Shown here: positions 1-37,123 of the stretch, in pieces
Numbering within the stretch: the stretch's first letter is position 1
Layout: every line of letters begins with the position of its first letter
Source: a virus
Taxonomy: Duplodnaviria; Heunggongvirae; Uroviricota; Caudoviricetes
Length of the DNA: 37,123 bases
Direction: 5' to 3' (one strand)
Virus record (IMG/VR): IMGVR_UViG_2713896795_000003
Span: 1-37,123 of that record
Position numbers and translations under genes: made by a program
The notes under the pieces: generated by a model
The model's database searches: none
The model's input: only the letters and a program-made list of their open reading frames with translations
Told to the model about the DNA's origin: nothing

Positions 1-483
1 TTATTTGATAAGAAGTGAAGGTTTCCCAACCTTGAGTTGAGCGCCTGGGATATTTATTCCTGCTTTTAGTTGGTGCTTGATTGCCAACTTGTCGGCTTTA
101 ATTGTCGTTTCAAACTCAACGTATTCAGGAGGAAGGGCGCTTGAGTCGATGATTTCTACAGTTTCTGACGGTTTGCGGATTGTTACCTGGTGAATACCTG
201 CTCGAATCTTTTTCTTGCCAACCATTTCAAGCGATGACGCTATATATGATTTGATGCTGTCAATCTTATTTTGAATTACTGTGGCTCGCTCATTCAGTGA
301 CTTTGCCTCTTCCTTGAGGCGTTCGGCATAACCAGATTCATTTTTAATGACGGAAAGAAGTTGCTCTATTTTATCGGTAAATTCTCCTTCCATGCCTTCT
401 ATTGTGTCAGCAATCATCTCTGGTTCTAAATCTGAATCCATCAATTTTGCGTATTCATTGGCAATTTCATACAGTTTGCTCAC
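1..483 (-). CDS. Hypothetical recombination-associated protein, possibly Gp157-family
   Basis: Complete minus-strand ORF with TAA at 1-3; GGAGG lies 6 nt before GTG at 483 (the ORF-track TTG at 489 abuts the SD); overlaps recT stop; ~160 aa and position next to recT fit Gp157-type proteins, but family not verified. Confidence 0.5.
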   Translation of the reverse strand: MSKLYEIANEYAKLMDSDLEPEMIADTIEGMEGEFTDKIEQLLSVIKNESGYAERLKEEAKSLNERATVIQNKIDSIKSYIASSLEMVGKKKIRAGIHQVTIRKPSETVEIIDSSALPPEYVEFETTIKADKLAIKHQLKAGINIPGAQLKVGKPSLLIK

Positions 484-1369
484 TGGCAACCTCCAGTTTC
501 GCTTTGCATTCTGCGTAAATGGCTTGTACGTTCTGCTGCAATTTCATTCCAGATGTCAGGCGATATGCTTCTGCAAAATACCTCTTCAAATCATCCATGT
601 TTTCAGCCTGAGCCATTTCATCACAAAGAAGTTGTGCTTTTTCCATTATTTCCTGCTGGCGTTTCCGTTCATCTTCGCGGATATCTTCCTCTGATTTGTG
701 CGGCATAACCGGTTCCTGATGCATACCCTCATCTTCGTTAAGCAGGTGAATGGCATTATCCAGTCGCTGGGCTTTAGGCCAGTATTTGCTGGCGCGTTTA
801 ACTATGGTTTTACGCGCCATCTCTTCCCAGAATGTCTTCCACGGTCCATTCTTTGCCTTGCTCGTTGCTTCCACAGCTTTAATTTCTGCCAGACTCATTT
901 CTTCAGTGAGGTAGTCACCATCTGCTGTTTTAACCGTACAATAACCACCAACAATAGAGCCTCGCTCACCAAATGCGTTGTATTTGTGGGTTGGTGCTGA
1001 ATCAAGGCCGTTTGATTCATAGGTGTCGTTTGAGTACACCAGTTTGCATTGCCCCCACTTAATTGATCCTGTCGACTGTGCAAGGTGAAGTAATCCCATA
1101 TAGCTGATATCAAGGCAAACCATGCCGTCGCGCGGAACTAGATAAGCAAGTTTGCTGGCCGGGTTTAAGGTGATGCCGATCGCCGCAACATTGATGATGG
1201 CGTTCTGTGCGCTGGTTGGATTTGCCAGTGCCGTTTTAGCCAGGTAATCGTTTTTCTGGAAATACTGAATTGCAAACTGGCTTTCCTTAGCCCATGTCAC
1301 CGTCTGTTCAGTCAATGCTCCGCAGAATAACTGCTCCTGCTGTTTAACGAATTCAACGATATTGCTCAT
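467..1369 (-). CDS. recT: RecT/Bet-type single-strand annealing recombinase
   Basis: 300-aa ORF, ATG with GGAGAAG SD; translation recognisable as RecT family; ATGA start/stop overlap with upstream ORF. Confidence 0.8.
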   Translation of the reverse strand: MSNIVEFVKQQEQLFCGALTEQTVTWAKESQFAIQYFQKNDYLAKTALANPTSAQNAIINVAAIGITLNPASKLAYLVPRDGMVCLDISYMGLLHLAQSTGSIKWGQCKLVYSNDTYESNGLDSAPTHKYNAFGERGSIVGGYCTVKTADGDYLTEEMSLAEIKAVEATSKAKNGPWKTFWEEMARKTIVKRASKYWPKAQRLDNAIHLLNEDEGMHQEPVMPHKSEEDIREDERKRQQEIMEKAQLLCDEMAQAENMDDLKRYFAEAYRLTSGMKLQQNVQAIYAECKAKLEVASEQTV

Positions 1370-1677
1370 GCTGCTTCTCCAAAAATGTGTCTGCGCTTGA
1401 ATATTGCGAAGGCATATTCAGCCTTAACTCTTTCGGTTATTGCATCCCAGAACCATTCAGCGGCTTTTTCCTGATAGTTACAGTCATCATCTTCCAGCCA
1501 GTCGATAGCGTCCTTAGTGTGTTCATCTGGTTTATATGAGCGAAGCATTTCGCTTATTGGGTCGCAACGTTTGCAGAGGCGATCAACTTCACTGTTGATT
1601 CGTTCGTAATCTTCATCAGTAAAACTTGCGATTATTTGCGATATTTCACGCTTATCATTCAGAGTCAGAATCATCAT
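1366..1677 (-). CDS. Hypothetical early-left protein (103 aa)
   Basis: ATGATG start with AGGAG SD; stop overlaps recT start (ATGA). Confidence 0.6.
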   Translation of the reverse strand: MMILTLNDKREISQIIASFTDEDYERINSEVDRLCKRCDPISEMLRSYKPDEHTKDAIDWLEDDDCNYQEKAAEWFWDAITERVKAEYAFAIFKRRHIFGEAA

Positions 1678-1762
1678 CTTTCTCCTGTTCTTTGTGCTGA
1701 TTGAGCATTTTGTTCATCTGACGAATGAATTCTTCGTCTGACCAGTTATCTGTAAAACTCAT
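1655..1762 (-). CDS. Small hypothetical ORF (35 aa, acidic C-terminus)
   Basis: Hand-translated; ATG overlaps stop of the cIII-like ORF (ATGA); weak SD; below ORF-track size cutoff. Confidence 0.3.
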   Translation of the reverse strand: MSFTDNWSDEEFIRQMNKMLNQHKEQEKDDDSDSE

Positions 1763-1929
1763 GGACGGCCTTGTTGTTTCAAAATATCCCAAAGCTTTTC
1801 GAGCAAACTTTTCATTCTTGGTTGTTTAAAGTCTGCTCCGGTTAGAATATTTTTTCGTGAATGCTGTACCGATAAAATCGGGTTGAAAGGGCGAACCGAT
1901 GCCGCCCCTGCAATAGCGAACTGTTGCAT
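1759..1929 (-). CDS. cIII: CIII-like small protein (56 aa), putative FtsH inhibitor
   Basis: Hand-translated MQQFAIAGAA...LLEKLWDILKQQGRP resembles lambda CIII (MQYAIAGWPVA...WKRLIDILNQPGVP) from memory; AAGGAG SD 6 nt before ATG. Confidence 0.5.
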   Translation of the reverse strand: MQQFAIAGAASVRPFNPILSVQHSRKNILTGADFKQPRMKSLLEKLWDILKQQGRP

Positions 1930-2012
1930 AGGATGCTCCTTCTGTTTGATTGCATAACGAAAACGCCTCGAGTGAAGCGTTATTGGTATGCGGTAAAGCC
2001 GCGCTTGGCGGC

Positions 2013-2432
2013 TTATTTGAAGATTTCTATGAAATCAAGAACTGATGATATTTCGTGGTTGAACGATTTTCTTTTGTATCTTTCTATCGCAGAATCCACC
2101 TGGTGTTTATAGTCATCGTCGTTTGAGTATTTAACGAAGCATTCTATTGTCTCAGGCGTTACAGCTATGAGGCTCCACCAACCTTCATCAGATTGATATT
2201 CAAACCCCATGCTTTCAAGCCATCCAGCATATTTCCCTCCAGCATCTTGCCAGTGTGTTTTTTCTGCAAGGAAGCTGTTAACCGTCATATGTGCATCAAG
2301 GCATTTATCCAACTGTTTACCATTAAGTAGCCATGCGCTGACAGTTGCACATCCCAAATCAACTGATTGAGTAGAGATATTGAATTGGTCGTAATTATCT
2401 GGATTAACCAGAATATCTGTAATTTCCATCAT
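2013..2432 (-). CDS. Hypothetical protein (139 aa)
   Basis: GGAGGA directly before ATGATG at 2432/2429; the upstream part of the ORF-track frame runs through a terminator hairpin and is unlikely to be coding. Confidence 0.6.
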   Translation of the reverse strand: MMEITDILVNPDNYDQFNISTQSVDLGCATVSAWLLNGKQLDKCLDAHMTVNSFLAEKTHWQDAGGKYAGWLESMGFEYQSDEGWWSLIAVTPETIECFVKYSNDDDYKHQVDSAIERYKRKSFNHEISSVLDFIEIFK

Positions 2433-2441
2433 TCCTCCATC

Positions 2442-2468
2442 AAAAAAAATGCCCTCACACTGGAGGGC
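2442..2468 (-). terminator. Intrinsic terminator inside the leftward early operon (tL-like)
   Basis: Minus-strand hairpin GCCCTCcagtgtGAGGGC followed by ATTTTTTTT, immediately upstream of the 139-aa gene SD. Confidence 0.6.
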
Positions 2469-2572
2469 AAAGAAGATTTCCAATAATCAGAACAAGTCGG
2501 CTCCTGTTTAGTTACGAGCGACATTGCTCCGTGTATTCACTCGTTGGAATGAATACACAGTGCTTATTCGTA

Positions 2573-3043
2573 CTAATAAAACACCCAATTTTCTGTTTCT
2601 TGGTTGTGTCCAAAGTTATATTCAATATCTGGTGTTGATGTATCAATATTCTTCATCCCATCAACAAGAGTTGATACAACAGCCAAATCTTGTTTGATTC
2701 TCATCAAATGGTATTTCTTCCGGCGCAATAAACTTTCAATGGCAAGTTTCTTCGTCGGGAATGCAAAAGATCTTTCTGCATTTTTTGCTACTTTCTTAAT
2801 TGCATATCTATTTCTCCTTTGTTTCCATTCCTGTAACCACAGATTTGGTGCTGGTTTAAAATTAACAATCCAATGCGCAGGAACCAACCATGCATAATGC
2901 TCTGTCTGATGAAAAGCTATATATTGAAGTGCGAATATTTTGATTCCATCTTCTTCAACTGTCGCTTGGAATCTCCAGAAAACAGGCATTCCCTCATGTT
3001 CAGTTTCTGATTCAGGAAAAGGTACGCTCCATGATTTTGTCAT
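2573..3043 (-). CDS. Hypothetical protein (156 aa)
   Basis: ATG at 3043 with GAGGTG SD; no recognisable family. Confidence 0.6.
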   Translation of the reverse strand: MTKSWSVPFPESETEHEGMPVFWRFQATVEEDGIKIFALQYIAFHQTEHYAWLVPAHWIVNFKPAPNLWLQEWKQRRNRYAIKKVAKNAERSFAFPTKKLAIESLLRRKKYHLMRIKQDLAVVSTLVDGMKNIDTSTPDIEYNFGHNQETENWVFY

Positions 3044-3106
3044 ATCTCACCTCAAATAATTCAGTGCAGTGTTTATTCTGTTGTTTATGCCAAAAATAAA
3101 GGACGA

Positions 3107-3730
3107 TTATGCGACCTCGGAAGGAAGTCCAATCATCTTATTCAAATCTTCTACCCGTAAAGCAGGAAGTGCTGTACTTGCTTTATCTGCTTCTTTTGGT
3201 AGCAACTCTTTGCTTTCAGGCCAAACTTCAATAAGTCGCTTAACTGTTGTGACTGAGTTCAAAGCAGCCCATACATTTGATTCGATATCCTTTTTCTTGG
3301 CTTCAAGTTTTTGTTGCAATGCGCAGATTTCATCAAACCTTTTTGTTATTTCGTGTTCTGCGTCAAACATGCATTTATCTTTTTCTGGGGTGGGGAGCAA
3401 TATATCTTCACCGTTGCCGTCTTTTCCGTATGAATGCCAGCCAACCCTTCTTCCAGATACAGTCAGATAAATCGAAGTAGAACGAACATCGCATGAGTAA
3501 AATGAACATCCCATCTTCTCAAGTTCTTCACTTATAGCTGCTAACTTGGATGATAACCGATCCACTTCCTCAGTTTTCTTTTTACCGCCAAACGCAATAA
3601 CTCTGGCGTCAAGTGCAAGCTGGTTCTTTAACTTTGTTACTTCTTCAAGTTCAGTGAAAACCCCAGACTTAATTAAAGCGTTACGAGCGATTTCCTCTTT
3701 CATTCTCGTAGTTAAGCGGATTGATGACAT
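3107..3730 (-). CDS. Hypothetical protein (207 aa)
   Basis: ATG at 3730 (MSSIRLTT...) with GAGGAA SD just after N stop; the longer ORF-track frame overlaps N 3-prime end; no recognisable family. Confidence 0.6.
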   Translation of the reverse strand: MSSIRLTTRMKEEIARNALIKSGVFTELEEVTKLKNQLALDARVIAFGGKKKTEEVDRLSSKLAAISEELEKMGCSFYSCDVRSTSIYLTVSGRRVGWHSYGKDGNGEDILLPTPEKDKCMFDAEHEITKRFDEICALQQKLEAKKKDIESNVWAALNSVTTVKRLIEVWPESKELLPKEADKASTALPALRVEDLNKMIGLPSEVA

Positions 3731-5291: not shown

Positions 5292-5477
5292 ATGTACAAG
5301 AAAGATGTTATCGACCACTTCGGAACCCAGCGTGCTGTAGCTAAAGCGTTAGGCATTAGCGACGCAGCAGTCTCTCAGTGGAAGGAAGTCATCCCAGAGA
5401 AAGACGCCTATCGACTGGAAGTCGTTACAGCTGGCGCCCTGAAGTATCAAGAAAGCGCTTACCGCAAAGCGGCATAA
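5292..5477 (+). CDS. cro: Cro repressor (P22-type, 61 aa)
   Basis: MYKKDVIDHFGTQRAVAKALGISDAAVSQWKE... recognised as P22-like Cro from memory; GGAG SD. Confidence 0.85.
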   Translation: MYKKDVIDHFGTQRAVAKALGISDAAVSQWKEVIPEKDAYRLEVVTAGALKYQESAYRKAA

Positions 5478-5483
5478 GCAAAT

Positions 5484-5529
5484 TGCTCTTTAACAGTCAT
5501 GGTCCTCATTCCCGCCGAAATGCGGGAAT
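5484..5529 (+). promoter_or_regulatory. nutR (boxA TGCTCTTTAACA + boxB hairpin)
   Basis: boxA 5484-5495; hairpin ATTCCCGC-cgaaat-GCGGGAAT 5508-5529, 12-nt spacing. Confidence 0.6.
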
Positions 5530-5534
5530 ACAAC

Positions 5535-5570
5535 GCGCATAAGTTGATGCGCATAACTTCTTATTTGTTA
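5535..5570 (+). terminator. Candidate tR1-like terminator
   Basis: Hairpin GCGCAT-aagttg-ATGCGC followed by interrupted T-rich tract; weak. Confidence 0.25.
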
Positions 5571-5610
5571 AGGAAATACTTACATATGGTTCGTGCAAAC
5601 AAACGCAACG
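5565..5610 (-). promoter_or_regulatory. pRE-like CII-activated promoter (TTGC-N6-TTGC)
   Basis: Minus strand TTGCGTTTGTTTGC (plus 5595-5608) overlapping cII start, as in lambda pRE. Confidence 0.45.
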
Positions 5611-5879
5611 AGGCTCTAAGAATCGAGAGTGCGTTGCTTAACAAAATCGCAATGCTTGGAACTGAGAAGACAGCGGAAGCTGTGGGAGTTGATAAGTCGC
5701 AGATCAGCAGGTGGAAGAGGGATTGGATTCCAAAGTTCTCAATGCTGCTTGCTGTTCTTGAATGGGGCGTCGTCGACGACGATATGGCTCGATTGGCACG
5801 ACAAGTTGCTTCGATTCTCACCAATAAAAAACGCCCGGCGGCAACCGAGCGTTCTGAACAAATCCAGATGGAATTCTGA
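5586..5879 (+). CDS. cII: CII transcriptional activator (lambda type, 97 aa)
   Basis: [47 protein letters not shown]... matches lambda CII from memory; the ORF-track start at 5499 is an extension through nutR. Confidence 0.9.
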
Positions 5880-5900
5880 GGTCATTACTGGATCAATCCA
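5824..5900 (-). ncRNA. oop: oop-like antisense RNA (placed by analogy with lambda)
   Basis: cII 3-prime end and the following ~30 bp resemble the lambda oop/pO region; minus-strand GC-rich hairpin followed by U-run near 5825-5850; coordinates approximate. Confidence 0.4.
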
Positions 5901-5911
5901 CAGGAGTCATT

Positions 5912-6058
5912 ATGACAAAACAACTCAGTCCTTACCAGGACAAAATTCACAAACACATACTACGTGATCGCTTCCTGTCCAGCTTCAAGCAGCCTGGTCG
6001 ATTCCGGGCTGAGTTGGAAAAAGTGAAGCTGATGCAGAAGGAGAAAGGTCATGAGTAA
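5912..6058 (+). CDS. Small hypothetical protein (48 aa)
   Basis: Hand-translated [21 protein letters not shown]...; AGGAG SD 7 nt before ATG; stop overlaps O-like gene start. Confidence 0.45.
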
Positions 6059-6911
6059 TCTTGCAACCGTAACACATTTAAGGCCTTCACAACGGCCTGT
6101 GGAGCGTCGTGTGGCAGAAGTTGAAGATGGTTATACCCGTCTTGCAAATGCCCTGTATGAAGAGCTTATCGGCGCAGATTTAACGAAAAATCAGAGCAAG
6201 GTTGCCCACGCCATATGCCGTAAAACATACGGCTACGGTAAAAAGATGGATCGCATTTCTGATAGTCAGTTAGCTCAAATTACCAGGCTGCCAAGACAGA
6301 AGGTAAACAAGGCCAAGAATGAGCTTATCGCGATGAAGGTTATCCTTCGCGAAGGCCAGCAAATCGGGCCTAACAAGAACATCGAAGAATGGCAAATCGA
6401 AGGGTGTCACTACTCTGGTGATAATGTCACTGCATTGGTGACAAAAAGTGTCACCAAAACGGTGACAGCGCTGTCACCAAAACAGGGACACACAAAAGAA
6501 ACTATTACAAAAGAAAAAAGAAATAATAAAAACACTATGTCCGAAAGTGTTCGGACGGAGTGTGAAAAATCATCTGACCGTCACGAAGAAACCGACAAGG
6601 CATTCGAGGAAATATTCTGGTGTGCAGGCATGCGGAAAGCCGGGAAGAAAAACGCGGCTTCGGCATTCAGAACACAGTTCAGGGAATGGCGTAAAACTAC
6701 CAGGGGTACGGCAAGCGAGTTTGCCACGATGCTGGCAGAAGACATCGCATGCAGGAATGGTAAGCAGTTCGGATTCGACAGGTTGTTACCATCGAGCTAC
6801 CTGAACGGTCAGCGCTGGAACGACGAGAAGCCAGAAACTATTCAACCACAATCCAAACCATCATCCGCAATCACCGTATCGAAAACTGGCTACGTGTTTT
6901 TCGACAGGTGA
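6051..6911 (+). CDS. Replication initiator, lambda O-like N-terminal domain
   Basis: N-terminal [36 protein letters not shown]...[13 protein letters not shown]...[11 protein letters not shown] resembles lambda O; iterons lie inside the gene; C-terminal half unlike lambda O. Confidence 0.8.
6405..6535. repeat. Replication origin: four TGTCAC(C)-N5/6-GGTGACA iterons plus AT-rich tract
   Basis: Repeats at 6405-6490 (e.g. TGTCACCAAAACGGTGACA) followed by ACAAAAGAAACTATTACAAAAGAAAAAAGAAATAATAAAAACAC, inside the O-like gene as in ori-lambda. Confidence 0.7.
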
Positions 6912-31786: not shown

Positions 31787-32102
31787 CACGCTGCAGCGAT
31801 TCCTTTTATCTGGAGCAGATTAAATGACAGATATTATAAATAGGAATTGTTATTTAATAATATTTGAAAATGAAAATCATGGACGATAGGAATAAAAGTA
31901 GTACTTGTTATTTTTAAGTGACGCATTAAACGCATAAAGCATATGTCTGTTGATCAAGATTCTTGCTTGTTGTAAAATAATTGTTTTGTTCATGTTGCAT
32001 AGTTTTAAAATGGATAGAAGATTATTTTTCAAAACAATTGCATCTTTGTCTGCAGTCATTCCGTTTTCTTCAATATCTAAATTTTCAAACAGGATGACTA
32101 AT

Positions 32103-34808
32103 ATGCCTGAGATAACTCCAAATGTTGTAATTGGGATGCCTTCTCAACTCTTCACTATGGCGCGTTCTTTTAAAGCCGTAGCTAATGGCAAAATTTATAT
32201 CGGTAAAATTGACACTGACCCGGTAAATCCTGAAAACCAGATTCAGGTTTATGTGGAGAACGAAGACGGCTCTCACGTTCCTGTTTCTCAACCAATCATC
32301 ATTAACGCTGCTGGATATCCGGTATATAACGGACAGATTGCCAAATTCGTAACTGTGCAAGGCCATTCTATGGCTGTTTACGATGCTTATGGCACTCAGC
32401 AGTTTTATTTTCCAAATGTATTAAAATACGATCCAGATCAGTTTGGCCCAGACTTCAAAGAGCAGTTATCTCAATCAGGAGCATACATTAATGATGATTC
32501 AAAAGGTGATGCATTAATTGGTGTAAGGCAGCCATTTACCGGGGCTGTAACTATAACTCAGCATGAAAACAATGCTCTTTTCTTAAATGTAAAACAATTT
32601 GGAGCAATTGGGGATGGGAAATATCATCCATTATCTGAGTGGTTTTCTTCAATTTCTGAAGCAAAATCCTTATATCCTTTTGTTGACTCATTATCTCAGT
32701 CAATAGACTGGGCCGCGTGGCAAGCTGCCCTTAACACAGGAAAGGTTATTTATGGTACTGATAATGCGTATGTAATAACGGATACGTTAACACCTGTTTC
32801 TGGTGGTGGGATAATTTGTCTTGGTGTGGGCAAATGGGTCTCAGGATATACTGCAACATTTGCTCCTGATATTACCACAGGAACCACATTCCTGATGTAC
32901 GGGGTAGGAAATAAAAAATATACTGTAGATTGTGTTTCTAATATGGATGTTAGTGGTGGTGTGGTTTCTAATCCATCTTCCGAAGACCCGTATACAACAA
33001 CGGCACCTGCGTCATCATATGATTTATTGGATTTTACTAACGGTGATGCTAATGGGGCTATAAGAGCCACGCTTAAACCATTCTCTGCCGCAATATTGAT
33101 GCCTGAGACAGGATGTGTTCGTCTTGAGAACTTTCGTATTGTTCCATATTTCAATGGGCTGGATGGTTATAAAGACATTGCAAATACCGGTCTTGGCGAT
33201 GAGTGGGATGTAGGTATTTGGTCACGTGCTTCTTTTGGCAATGAATACCGCAATTTGCAGGTGGTTGGATACTGGCGCAAGACGGCACTTTTAAAAACGA
33301 ACATTCCTGTATCTGGCACGCTGGCCGCTCAGGGCGAGGATGAAAACTATTATCACTGTAGATTCCAAGGATTCAAGGGTGTTTCGATCCGCGCCCATGA
33401 TGTATTCCGAATTACAGCGGTAACGTCCAGCACTATCGAAATCCCATGGTCAGCAAGCCACACCTTCGAAACGTCCGGGGTTTTAAGATCTGGAGGCAGG
33501 AATTTCACTTATTCAGGATTATCCGTATCCGGTGATAAGTTAGTATTTACTGGAGTGTCTAACGCTTCTGAGGCAACAGTAGGTTCTACTATACGGCGAA
33601 ATGACATAGATAACTTTGGTATGGCGGGAACGCAATTTTTCGATTGCTACATTACCAGCCTGTATCACCACACACATCTGCTTGCCACATCGCAATACCT
33701 GTCTCAACCATTCAGCCGACCATCAGAGTGTATGGAGGTTTCAGGGGAACCAGTTCGCGGTGTACAGGTACATGCAGGAACCATTCAGGGATGGGATGAT
33801 GTTCTTATTCATCTACATGACTGTGGAAATATGAACTTTTACAGTACATATTTCGAAAGCCAGCAAGCATATGTAACTATAAATGGTGGTAATGCTATTG
33901 GTTATGGAGCACGTATGATAGCTTCCCGGCAATCAACAAGCTCATTACCATATGCAGCAGGGAATACTCGAGTGCTTAGAATGGTCGGGTGCTCTGAAGG
34001 CAATGGCGTTGACTGGGGGCATGTATTTAACAACTATACAGGAGGAAGATATAATTCTGGAGACGGTGTATTTAACCCCCGCGATGCATTTATAGACCAT
34101 AAATCTCTTCCTGAGCAGTCAGGAGGTGAGTCAAGACTCGTATCACAAAAAGGAAATGCCAGAGTAGTATGTGGTGTTGGTAAAACTGTACTGCTTGGAC
34201 CAACGTCAGGAGATTGTAATTTACAGAGTAATACTGGAAGTTTAAATATTAGAAGTGGGATAAGAGTAAGAATCGGTCACGCTGATGGAACAGACTGGTG
34301 GTTGGCAGATGCTAATAAAATAGCTCCTGTTGATGATAATGTTAAAGCTATTGGACAGCCATCAAACAGATGCTCTGTTATTTATGCAGGAACCGGGTCA
34401 ATCAATACATCAGATGAAACTCTTAAAACAAGATATGATATTCTTAATGCAGAGCGTGATGCCGCTATTGAAATAAAGTCAGTCATCTATAAATTTAAAT
34501 TTAATGACTCAATTAATCACAAAGGAATTGAGTCGTCCAGGTATCATTTTGGCGTTGGCGCTCAAACCGTAGGGGATATTCTTAGAAAGCATGGTTTAAA
34601 CCCTGAGCAATATGCTTTTTGGTGTTACGATGAATGGCCTGACGTATGGGATGAAGAGGTGATAACTGAAGAGAGCACAGATCCTGATACAGGTGAGAAA
34701 ATTTATTCTCAATATAAAACAGGAGATATGATTCTTGTAAAAAAAGCAGGAGGACGCTACGGAATTCGTTATGACGAATTGGCTATGTTTATATTAATGG
34801 CAATGTAG
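32103..34808 (+). CDS. Tailspike: P22-type head-binding domain + beta-helix receptor-binding/depolymerase domain + C-terminal S74-type chaperone domain
   Basis: N-terminus [46 protein letters not shown]... resembles P22 tailspike head-binding domain; central QFGAIGDG pectate-lyase-like motif; C-terminal SDETLK motif; AGGA 8 nt before ATG 32103 (alternative ATG 32094). Confidence 0.85.
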
Positions 34809-35149: not shown

Positions 35150-35326
35150 GCGCTAATGCTCTGTTACAGGTCACTAATACCATCTAAGTGGTTGATTCAT
35201 AGTGACTGGATATGTTGTGTTTTGTAGCATTGTGTAGTCTATTTTTTAGACTAAAAATATTGTAATGCATTGATATTAATGGTTTTTAATGTTTCACGTT
35301 CAGCTTTTTTATACTAACTTGAGCGA
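35150..35326. other. attR: lambda-type P arm plus 15-bp core GCTTTTTTATACTAA (35312-35326)
   Basis: Core matches the lambda att common core; left flank CTGTTACAGGTCACTAATACCATCTAAGT...GTTGATTCATAGTGACTG resembles lambda attP P arm; right flank CTTGAGCGAAACGGGAAGG resembles E. coli attB B-prime arm (from memory). Confidence 0.8.
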
Positions 35327-35407: not shown

Positions 35408-35884
35408 TTAACTAAACATCGCAGTAATCGAGGCACTCGCCAGAGAGTGAAAATGAACGTTAAACCCGACCATCGCGCCGCTGGCACCTTCATCGACATC
35501 AATACGTTCTACATCCAGCGCGTGAACGGTAAAAATGTAGCGATGGGTTTCGCCTTTCGGCGGCGCTGCGCCATCGTACCCGGTTTTACCAAAGTCGGTA
35601 CGCGTCTGCAAAACGCCGTCTGGCATAGCTACCAGACCAGAGCCAAACCCTTGCGGTAATACGCGGGTATCAGCGGGTAAATTAACAACTACCCAGTGCC
35701 ACCAGCCGGAGCCGGTTGGCGCATCCGGGTCATAGCAGGTGACAACAAAACTTTTCGTTCCCACAGGAACATCATCCCACGCCAGATGCGGTGAAATATT
35801 ATCGCCATCGTAACCCATGCCGTTAAAGACATGACGATGCGGCAGCTTATCGCCATCGCGCAGATCGTTACTGATGAGTTTCAT
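35408..35884 (-). CDS. ybhB: YbhB (PEBP/RKIP-family protein), host gene
   Basis: 158 aa MKLISNDLRDGDKLPHRHVFNGMGYDGDNISPHLAWDDVP... recognised as E. coli YbhB; GGAGGC SD. Confidence 0.9.
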   Translation of the reverse strand: MKLISNDLRDGDKLPHRHVFNGMGYDGDNISPHLAWDDVPVGTKSFVVTCYDPDAPTGSGWWHWVVVNLPADTRVLPQGFGSGLVAMPDGVLQTRTDFGKTGYDGAAPPKGETHRYIFTVHALDVERIDVDEGASGAMVGFNVHFHSLASASITAMFS

Positions 35885-35992
35885 TAGAATGCCTCCGGGA
35901 AACCTCGGCCTTCAGACCGGGGAGGAAAGGAGGCGGTTTTCCGACTAACTGTACTTTGCATAATCACATTTTCCTCTTTAGTATGTGAACAC

Positions 35993-37123
35993 ATGAAACG
36001 CGCATATAAATACCGGTTTTACCCGACAACTGAGCAGGCTGAGCTTTTAGCTCAGACGTTTGGCTGTGTGCGCTTCGTCTACAATTCCATCCTTCGTTGG
36101 CGTACCGATGCGTACTACGAGCGAAAAGAAAAGATCGGTTATCTACAGGCCAACGCTCGCCTTACGGCGCTCAAAAAAGAGCCTGAATACATATGGCTGA
36201 ATGATGTTTCCTGCGTTCCCCTCCAGCAGTCGTTGCGCCACCAACAAGCCGCCTTTGCTAACTTCTTTGCCGGACGAGCTGCATATCCGGCTTTCAAAAG
36301 CAAACGGCACAAACAGGTGGCTGAGTTCACTGCCAGCGCGTTTAAACACCGTGACGGCGAGTTGTATATAGCAAAGAGCAAGTCGCCGCTGGATGTTCGC
36401 TGGAGTCGAGAATTACCATCTGCGCCGTCAACCGTTACCATTTCCAGAGATAGCGCTGGCAGGTACTTTGTTTCCTGCCTGTGTGAGTTTGAACCTGTAT
36501 CAATGCCTGTTACCGCTAAAACGGTCGGCATTGATGTGGGCTTAAAAGATTTATTCGTCACCGATACCGGATTCAAAACCGACAATCCCCGCCACACCGC
36601 TAAATATGCGAAGCGATTAACGCTGCTACAGCGACGTTTAAGCAGGAAGCAAAAAGGCTCAAGAAACCGTATTAAAGCCCGCTTAAAGGTCGCCCGACTC
36701 CACGCGAAAATCGCCGATTGCCGGATGGACAATCTGCACAAGTTGTCCCGCAAACTGATTAACGAAAACCAAGTTGTTTGCGTCGAATCCCTCAAGGTGA
36801 AAAACATGATCCGCAACCCGAAGCTGTCTAAAGCAATAGCTGACGCAGGCTGGAGCGAACTTGTTCGCCAGCTCCAGTACAAAGGCAAATGGGCCGGGCG
36901 GTCAGTGGTCGCCATTGACCAGTATTTACCGTCCTCAAAATGCTGTAGTTGCTGCGGTTTCACCATGCAAAAAATGCCTCTTAATGTTCGTAAATGGCAC
37001 TGCCCTGAATGCGGCGCAGACCATGATCGCGACATTAACGCGGCACGTAATATTAAAGCTGCCGGGCTGGCAGTGTTAGCCCACGGAGAGCCTGTAAACC
37101 CTGAATCGCAGCACGCGGCTTAG
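35993..37123 (+). CDS. tnpB: TnpB (IS200/IS605-family OrfB, RuvC-like RNA-guided nuclease family)
   Basis: 376 aa; RuvC-I TVGIDVGLKD, RuvC-II VVCVESL, RuvC-III CGADHDRDINAARNI; zinc-finger CSCCG...CPECG; no tnpA in window. Confidence 0.85.
   Translation: MKRAYKYRFYPTTEQAELLAQTFGCVRFVYNSILRWRTDAYYERKEKIGYLQANARLTALKKEPEYIWLNDVSCVPLQQSLRHQQAAFANFFAGRAAYPAFKSKRHKQVAEFTASAFKHRDGELYIAKSKSPLDVRWSRELPSAPSTVTISRDSAGRYFVSCLCEFEPVSMPVTAKTVGIDVGLKDLFVTDTGFKTDNPRHTAKYAKRLTLLQRRLSRKQKGSRNRIKARLKVARLHAKIADCRMDNLHKLSRKLINENQVVCVESLKVKNMIRNPKLSKAIADAGWSELVRQLQYKGKWAGRSVVAIDQYLPSSKCCSCCGFTMQKMPLNVRKWHCPECGADHDRDINAARNIKAAGLAVLAHGEPVNPESQHAA

Follow-up and report, generated by a model that had tools for sequence, protein, structure and literature searches.

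In Deinococcus radiodurans, the TnpB protein of the insertion sequence (IS) ISDra2 loses its cleavage activity when D191 or E278 is mutated (PMC8612924). In Escherichia coli, a survey lists ISEc42, an IS of the IS1341 group with a length of 1294-1295 bp, a 376-aa TnpB, and cleavage at TCAT at the left end (LE) and at TCAA at the right end (RE), and reports 165 copies in 164 genomes, i.e., approximately one per genome (PMC9956272 supplement). Here, we analyzed a tnpB gene at the right edge of a 37,123-nt stretch of DNA recorded as a Caudoviricetes virus (IMG/VR record IMGVR_UViG_2713896795_000003; the whole stretch is referred to as the window). Our reading, for which we estimate a probability of about 0.87, is that the gene is the tnpB of ISEc42, a non-autonomous element located between the ATG of ybhB and its former Shine-Dalgarno (SD) sequence in the bioA-ybhB gene pair of a B2-type subset of E. 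coli.

The tnpB open reading frame (ORF) reads from ATG to TAG, and its stop codon forms the final three bases of the window. The gene and its key codons are as follows.

35993..37123, plus strand: tnpB coding sequence, 376 aa (ORF, domains, structure alignment, and the ratio of nonsynonymous to synonymous substitution rates [dN/dS]).
36533-36535, 36785-36787, and 37031-37033, plus strand: RuvC codons D181, E265, and D347, respectively (alignment to ISDra2 TnpB).
36944-37012, plus strand: zinc finger, C318 to C340 (alignment to ISDra2 TnpB).

The protein contains three Pfam domains that all score over their cutoffs, i.e., PF12323 HTH_OrfB_IS605 (residues 1-45), PF01385 OrfB_IS605 (residues 172-274), and PF07282 Cas12f1-like_TNB (residues 287-354), and it passes the NCBIfam model NF040570 guided_TnpB with 369.5 bits against a cutoff of 100. 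Using phmmer against PDB, we found that its best natural match is ISDra2 TnpB (8bf8/8exa/8h1j), which is 39% identical across 366 aligned residues (E=9e-75). In this alignment, D181, E265, and D347 fall on the RuvC residues D191, E278, and D361 of ISDra2, while C318, C321, C337, and C340 of the CxxC..CxxC zinc finger fall on C331, C334, C351, and C354. A sequence-only reading of the window had described a full-length TnpB with all three RuvC motifs and the zinc finger intact that is divergent from ybhB; the alignment to the ISDra2 residues and the minus-strand orientation of ybhB bear out this description. Because dN/dS is 0.07-0.15 across members of the element's family, the tnpB ORF is a selected coding sequence and not a chance ORF. 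The gene is a tnpB with intact active-site residues and, by analogy with ISDra2, would encode an RNA-guided nuclease. We note that no recognizable SD sequence precedes tnpB (35950-35992); the arrangement TTGCAT-17-TAGTAT-8 nt-ATG lies upstream of the gene and, if it is a promoter, would give a near-leaderless mRNA, and the scan tool made no call there. Consensus scans for promoters and terminators gave matches that were no commoner than in shuffled sequence, and we make no promoter claim for tnpB, its guide RNA (omega RNA or right-end RNA [reRNA]), or ybhB.

A comparison of the occupied site in E. coli CFT073 with the empty site in K-12 defined an insert of 1,291 bp without a target duplication, in which tnpB is the sole gene. 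In K-12 and two other strains, the empty site reads GAGTTTCAT joined directly to GAACCCTCCTTTCTTG, while the occupied site in CFT073 reads GAGTTTCAT followed by an insert that begins with TAGAATGCCTCC and ends with GCCGTCAA, after which GAGCCCTCCTTTCTTG follows. At the junctions, TTTCAT and GAACCC are adjacent in the empty site; in the occupied site, TTTCAT is followed by the 1,291 bp ending in GTCAA and then by GAGCCC. The left part of the element and its immediate context in the window are as follows.

35881..35884, plus strand: TCAT, left-flank target and presumed transposon-associated motif (TAM), found to the left of the start of homology in all family members; on the other strand, it reads ATGA, the ybhB start codon plus one base.
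35885..35992, plus strand: LE, the 108 bp that precede the tnpB ATG, starting at the first inserted base (K-12 versus CFT073 boundary; the homology to plasmid copies begins here).
35408..35884, minus strand: ybhB (PEBP family; ORF and Pfam), a host context gene and not part of the element, divergent from tnpB and with its ATG abutting the element.

The RE runs 52 nt past the tnpB stop codon, outside the window, and was located in the CFT073 locus (L001 5240-5291; fetched loci are cited by number). The full 1,291 bp recurs on plasmids of Serratia, Yersinia, Salmonella, Citrobacter, Enterobacter, and Klebsiella; in 91 plasmid records, one stretch covers 80% or more of the element, with 79-89% identity among the matches listed. 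In an alignment of seven loci, homology begins directly after the flanking TCAT and ends directly after GTCAA, and TCAT and TCAA were found at 20 sites with distinct flanks. This terminal layout, with no terminal inverted repeats, no target duplication, and a fixed tetranucleotide at each end, is that of IS200/IS605 elements, and with tnpB as the only gene, the element belongs to the IS1341 group. Five tabulated attributes, including the length (1291 bp plus TCAT), agree with the survey entry for ISEc42, and no difference was detected in this comparison by attributes. Because these five attributes fit, we identified the element as ISEc42.

The 3' end of tnpB and the RE together contain a conserved RNA structure. 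Based on an alignment of the last 130 nt up to the terminal TCAA in 20 relatives, we propose five helices, i.e., a 5' hairpin, two stacked helices, an inner hairpin, and an RE hairpin. The two stacked helices flank a GGA / GNUGAA internal loop and form a RAGATH-18-like core, and the tnpB stop codon falls within the inner hairpin. In the alignment, 96.1% of the cells are paired and 19 of the 32 pairs have changes on both sides, while 0 of 500 shuffles reached the observed values and slid controls paired at 36-46%. The RE hairpin (helix 5) is likewise conserved with compensatory changes, and the conserved structure spans the last ~66-78 nt of tnpB and the 52-nt RE. A single-sequence fold of the 3' region was uninformative (z = -0.94), and the structure came from covariation alone. 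A covariance model built from the alignment identified the complete structure in CFT073 (L001 5162-5291) and matched next to tnpB in 15 loci outside the model set, and it gave no match in K-12, where the locus is empty. The E. coli copy has the top score against this model (149.9 bits), its own sequence having been used in model building. In the window, the model identified the following.

37046..37123, plus strand: 5' part of the omega RNA scaffold (model positions 1-78 of 130; 3'-truncated match, 77.6 bits, E=7e-21).

Helix 1 is complete in this part, the k-turn helices are represented by their 5' arms, and the inner helix is present for the most part. Because the match stops at model position 78 of 130, the scaffold extends across the window edge; the remaining 52 nt with the RE hairpin and the terminal GTCAA are those at L001 5240-5291. 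The sequence-only reading had placed the guide RNA at or past the 3' end of the gene, at or beyond the window edge, which agrees with a scaffold that overlaps the end of tnpB and runs 52 nt beyond it. It had also proposed a rightward extension of the sequence and a covariance-model search; the full CFT073 chromosome shows a conserved right end and an uninterrupted tnpB, and the search gave the matches described above. By analogy with ISDra2 (PMC8612924), the guide would be the ~16 nt that follow GTCAA (GAGCCCTCCTTTCTTG, from L001 5292), with expression and processing of the RNA likewise predicted.

The ends of the element also follow a recognizable logic. Barabas et al. reportedly found in 2008 that the ends of IS608 carry a 4-nt DNA guide 5' of each hairpin foot and that this guide pairs with the cleavage site. 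DNA folding of the LE of ISEc42 identified a comparable arrangement.

35899..35925, plus strand: LE DNA guide GAAA (35899-35902), then the subterminal hairpin CCTCGGCC-TTCAGA-CCGGGGAGG (DNA fold).

The RE parallels the LE with GAAT, a hairpin, and the terminal TCAA. Subterminal hairpins are present in the DNA folds of both ends and are conserved with compensatory changes in relatives; CCCCGNCC is the hairpin of the element's ends that accompanies the GAAA and GAAT guides. A pairing rule of GAAA with TCAT would be analogous to that of IS608 and to the LE DNA guide described in PMC10055086. Among the fetched loci, sister subfamilies have the guide AAAG with TTAC and the guides AAGA or AAAA with TTAT. 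These sister elements (L016-L018, L022, L023, L025-L027, L031, L077, and L080; LE at ~2870-3000) share the RE and the omega RNA scaffold with ISEc42 and have TnpB proteins that are 76-83% identical; their LEs differ, with the guides AAAG, AAGA, or AAAA matching flanks TTAC or TTAT. It looks like their target specificity was swapped via the LE guide. In addition, hundreds of Klebsiella plasmids have relics without tnpB that are either LE-only (~60 bp, 90% identity) or truncated RE/omega RNA-only (~70 bp, 94% identity).

L091 2501-2561 and L092 2501-2571: Klebsiella plasmid relics of the family without tnpB.

We considered that these short matches might be miniature LE-plus-RE derivatives resembling palindrome-associated transposable elements and rejected this possibility, as they are isolated LE-only or truncated RE-only relics.

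No tnpA or remnant of it lies inside the element, in which only 108 bp separate the LE edge from the tnpB ATG. In tblastn searches with two Y1 TnpA queries (IS200 and IS608 TnpA sequences), we detected no tnpA in the window, as the sequence-only reading had stated, and none within 3-4 kb in CFT073 (~9-kb locus) or the enterobacterial relatives, the remainder of the genomes not having been searched; matches were obtained at three distant loci only (L044, L063, and L084), none of which is enterobacterial. The logic of the ends fits mobilization by a Y1 TnpA acting in trans, by analogy with IS608, and no candidate was found.

The DNA from ybhB to the tnpB stop codon is identical to that of CFT073, and the stretch from the LE through tnpB (35885-37123) is 100% identical in Nissle 1917, E2348/69, LF82, NU14, ATCC 25922, and others. 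In chromosomes with the identical element, tnpB sits between ybhB and bioA. Of 5,426 complete E. coli genomes, 342 have the RE-bioA junction and the others have the empty site; the median copy number is one per genome, and the site is always the same. In an evenly spaced sample, copies were 100%, 99.9%, or 99.8% identical, except for one at 98.1%, and formed two haplotypes 2-3 single-nucleotide polymorphisms (SNPs) apart. All sampled chromosomal copies with at least 98% identity are annotated as TnpB family in a listing that carries no pseudogene flags. Carriers of phylogroup B2 type include CFT073, Nissle 1917, E2348/69, LF82, NU14, and 536, and this picture agrees with reports of ISEc42 in ST1193 and ST131 surveys (MobileElementFinder-type). 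ISEc42 looks like a vertically inherited single-site resident in part of phylogroup B2.

We also considered a signature of a recent sweep or homing. Eight B2 strains had 0 polymorphic sites in the 1,291-bp element versus 58 in ybhB and bioA; these strains had been selected for the highest identity to the element. The flanking SNPs are mostly in single-strain recombinant blocks, i.e., in ybhB of E2348/69 and in bioA of 95-3322, and the sampled identities fit ordinary vertical descent. We therefore rejected this contrast as evidence of a sweep or of homing. The blocks in question (ybhB, L002 3533-3976, 6 SNPs; bioA, L096, L001-equivalent 5394-6568, ~35 SNPs) end short of the element, so that the flanks are mosaic and the element is not.

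Based on work on ISDra2 and in Geobacillus (PMC8612924, PMC10055086), the following mechanism can be proposed. The tnpB transcript would yield the omega RNA, the 3' ~16 nt of which (GAGCCCUCCUUUCUUG) would derive from the bioA-side flank. TnpB with this RNA would cut DNA bearing the TAM TCAT and a match to the guide, and its target would be the empty site, either as a scarless excision joint or as a never-occupied allele. Recombination of the cut site with an occupied copy would then restore ISEc42. Movement of the element would require a Y1 TnpA in trans that recognizes GAAA/TCAT at the LE and GAAT/TCAA at the RE.

Several points weigh against our reading of the locus or limit it. Nuclease cutting, RNA production, and transposition of ISEc42 are predicted by analogy with characterized relatives. 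Its identification with the already catalogued ISEc42 rests on five matching attributes. Under the strict NCBIfam model NF038281 IS200_TnpB, the protein scores 400 bits, slightly under the curated cutoff of 425. A permissive Rfam scan of L001 gave a RAGATH-18 (RF03064) match of 29 bits (E=0.006; gathering score 44.9). This sub-threshold match spans the tnpB stop codon over the full model length (positions 1-71); we rejected membership in RAGATH-18, which the core only resembles. Mismatches near the loops make both end hairpins of the E. coli copy less stable than those of a copy on a Salmonella plasmid (LE, -9.6 versus -16.8; RE, -7.3 versus -10.0 kcal/mol). No tnpA was found in the window or near any enterobacterial copy. 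Finally, the guide differs at position 3 (GAG versus GAA) from all three empty alleles inspected: the right flank of the occupied B2 site reads GAGCCC (L001 5292-5294), while the empty alleles read GAACCC (L003 2411-2413, L089, and L090), and a natural empty allele reads TCAT followed by GAACCCTCC. Given this mismatch, the nuclease may today have no effective target in E. coli.

A rival explanation is that ISEc42 in B2 E. coli is an inert fossil that no longer moves or cuts usefully and in which the ORF is intact for want of time to decay. The single copy at a constant site, the low diversity among sampled copies (0.2% or less, apart from one copy at 98.1%), the lack of a detected tnpA, the mismatches near the loops of both hairpins, and the mismatch of the guide to extant empty alleles in the seed all agree with such a state. 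However, family-wide dN/dS indicates that TnpB is selected where this is measurable, the sampled copies are uniformly annotated as TnpB family, and the E. coli scaffold scores highest against the family model, of whose input it is a part. We consider the fossil explanation rather unlikely, while it retains real weight.

The flagged gene itself is not new, as it belongs to a catalogued IS of a well-understood class; the notable aspect is where the ISEc42 subfamily inserts. At seven of seven loci with RefSeq annotation, the reverse complement of the flanking TCAT consists of an annotated start codon and one further base; the minus-strand genes that begin there are ybhB, traX, trbC (twice), a phage tail U gene, traW, and a gene of a phage-plasmid. 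Among the 20 insertions with distinct flanks, the TCAT opens an opposite-strand ORF of 133-779 codons in 17, and the element is antisense to the host gene; 2 of the 20 are in orthologous trbC junctions and possibly represent one old event. As a control, ORFs of 130 codons or more begin at 16% of the ATGA sites in the same flanks, and 4% of the sites supply the first ATG of an ORF this long (P = 2e-11 to 1e-21). If all intragenic sites are assumed to be lethal, start sites make up 28% of the remainder (P = 2e-7). In the reconstructed empty sites, a displaced SD sequence is present at -8 to -14 in 8 of 15.

Window 35881-35896; L004-L008, L011-L033, L065-L069, L081, and L093: LE junctions at start codons.
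35891..35896, minus strand: GGAGGC, putative replacement SD sequence 6 nt (ATTCTA) before the ybhB ATG; also the outer LE stem arm with 35929-35934.
L004 4282-4285, L006 4287-4290, L008 4285-4288, L013, L021, and L069: RE termini that regenerate a stop codon.

The LE opens with N6-GCCTCC, which is GGAGGC-N6-ATG on the sense strand of the host gene, and of the 18 enterobacterial LEs of the TCAT type, 15 keep GGAGG or GGGGG at a distance of 6-7 nt upstream of the host ATG; GGAGG is absent in sister subfamilies with other targets and in the TCAT-type LEs of Zobellella and Ferrimonas. GGAGGC may act as an SD sequence for the host gene. On the other side of the element, a long upstream ORF reaches the insertion point at 8 of 19 sites, and in 6 of these 8, that ORF runs at once into an in-frame TGA provided by the RE terminus TCAA, which is TTGA on the strand of the host gene. 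The six sites consist of four ATGA overlaps and two TAATG/TGATG overlaps, and in the two ATGA overlaps worked by hand (L004 and L006), the change in the preceding codon is synonymous.

These data raise the idea, which we hold at even odds, that docking at translation starts and ATGA operon junctions is an adaptation of the ISEc42 subfamily, whose members would lie antisense to the host gene and do minimal harm by carrying an SD sequence in place of the displaced one and regenerating a TGA. Some caveats apply. The SD hexamer doubles as an arm of the outer LE stem, and the RNA fold predicts that it pairs with GCCUCC; the regenerated stop codon may be fortuitous, as many IS200/IS605 elements have an RE ending in TCAA. 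The pattern could arise from target choice, from survivorship, or from both; under survivorship, an imprecise deletion would take away the sole SD sequence beside the host ATG. With docking at start codons, every guide RNA of the subfamily would target the 5' untranslated region or SD side of a start codon. We found no description of start-codon docking by IS605/IS1341 elements in the searchable literature, which is weak evidence of novelty, and nothing relevant on TnpB in connection with ybhB or with TCAT.

A further explanation is that the insertion is a host-serving module, kept since its LE rewires ybhB by a new SD sequence, a possible outward promoter, and uncoupling from the biotin-regulated bioA transcript, with TnpB as a passenger. 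GGAGGC 6 nt ahead of the ybhB ATG and the fixation of the element in a successful lineage are compatible with this explanation, as is a promoter-like sequence in the LE that faces ybhB.

Window 35960-35989 (L001 4105..4076), minus strand: promoter-like TTCACA-18-(TG)GATTAT toward ybhB (consensus scan, chance level).

However, this promoter-like sequence is at chance level (2 found, 1.8 expected) and is not conserved in the LE variants of relatives, and the SD sequence is predicted to be paired in a stem. Moreover, because the same LE design is present beside unrelated genes on plasmids and phages, it is a property of the element and not of ybhB. We regard a host-serving role as improbable. Still less probable, to a degree that makes it a marginal candidate, is that the gene encodes a TldR-like protein, i.e., a nuclease-dead TnpB derivative that acts as an RNA-guided repressor of neighboring genes. 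A single-copy, fixed gene that lacks tnpA and adjoins host genes would suit a TldR, which is recognized by loss of RuvC residues or C-terminal truncation and by lost transposon ends; here, the protein retains the D-E-D triad, the zinc finger, and a complete C-terminus, the element has kept both of its transposon ends, and its close relatives occupy many sites with different flanking guides. Last, it is scarcely credible that the element is cargo (a moron) of the adjacent lambdoid prophage: it does lie ~570 bp from the attR core (35303-35317), i.e., beside the prophage junction as the sequence-only reading had put it, but ybhB separates the two, and the same position holds an identical element in CFT073, LF82, and NU14, three strains in which ybhC-ybhB is intact and the prophage is absent; the element thus has nothing to do with the prophage, and its position beside the junction is a coincidence.

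In the window, the lambda att core GCTTTTTTATACTAA (attR, 35303-35317) follows a 952-aa tail-fiber-like ORF (31950-34808). E2348/69 and 2015C-4136CT1 have effector-bearing prophages (nleH, cif, and espJ) at the same ybhB-proximal site.

If docking, the carried SD sequence, and the regenerated stop codon are confirmed experimentally, they would represent a distinct route by which a transposon avoids polar damage in operons, and annotation pipelines should expect ISEc42-type elements exactly between an SD sequence and its ATG. ISEc42 marks a lineage that makes up part of phylogroup B2. In strains such as CFT073 and Nissle 1917, an intact TnpB and its predicted omega RNA occur naturally in a single copy, with the empty site as a defined target; these strains are readily manipulated and convenient for the study of a tnpA-less TnpB in its native host.

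Among known systems, ISEc42 resembles ISDra2 in TnpB architecture, with 39% identity and shared catalytic and zinc residues, in a predicted RNA encoded by the tnpB 3' end and the RE with a flank-derived guide, and in an RE that ends in TCAA. It differs in that ISDra2 has tnpA and the target TTGAT, while ISEc42 has no tnpA and uses TCAT; the activity of ISDra2 is demonstrated, while that of ISEc42 is predicted. With IS608 of Helicobacter pylori, ISEc42 shares subterminal hairpins and 4-nt guides, and its RE arrangement GAAT...TCAA is that of IS608; the LE of ISEc42 pairs GAAA with TCAT, and no TnpA partner was found for the ISEc42 family. A related tnpB (62-67% aa identity) is present in at least 13 copies on an Endozoicomonas chromosome from a metagenome-assembled genome (contig OZ246962.1), versus a single copy in E. 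coli, and the omega RNA of Endozoicomonas has an extra inserted hairpin.

L039, L040, L045, L048, L049, L052-L055, L066, L073, L078, and L083: Endozoicomonas tnpB copies.

RAGATH-18 is the reRNA core of IS607 TnpBs (PMC11061315). The ISEc42 scaffold shares with it a pair of stacked 5-bp helices that enclose a k-turn-like GGA / GNUGAA internal loop; however, its TnpB is of the IS605/IS1341 type and not of the IS607 type, and extra helices flank the core on the 5' and 3' sides. In IStrons, IS200/IS605 elements are fused to group I introns, and their insertions are made harmless to the host gene (PMC4227781). While IStrons splice out of the RNA, members of the ISEc42 family have no ribozyme, sit at a start codon or operon junction, and appear to replace the translation signals of the host gene.

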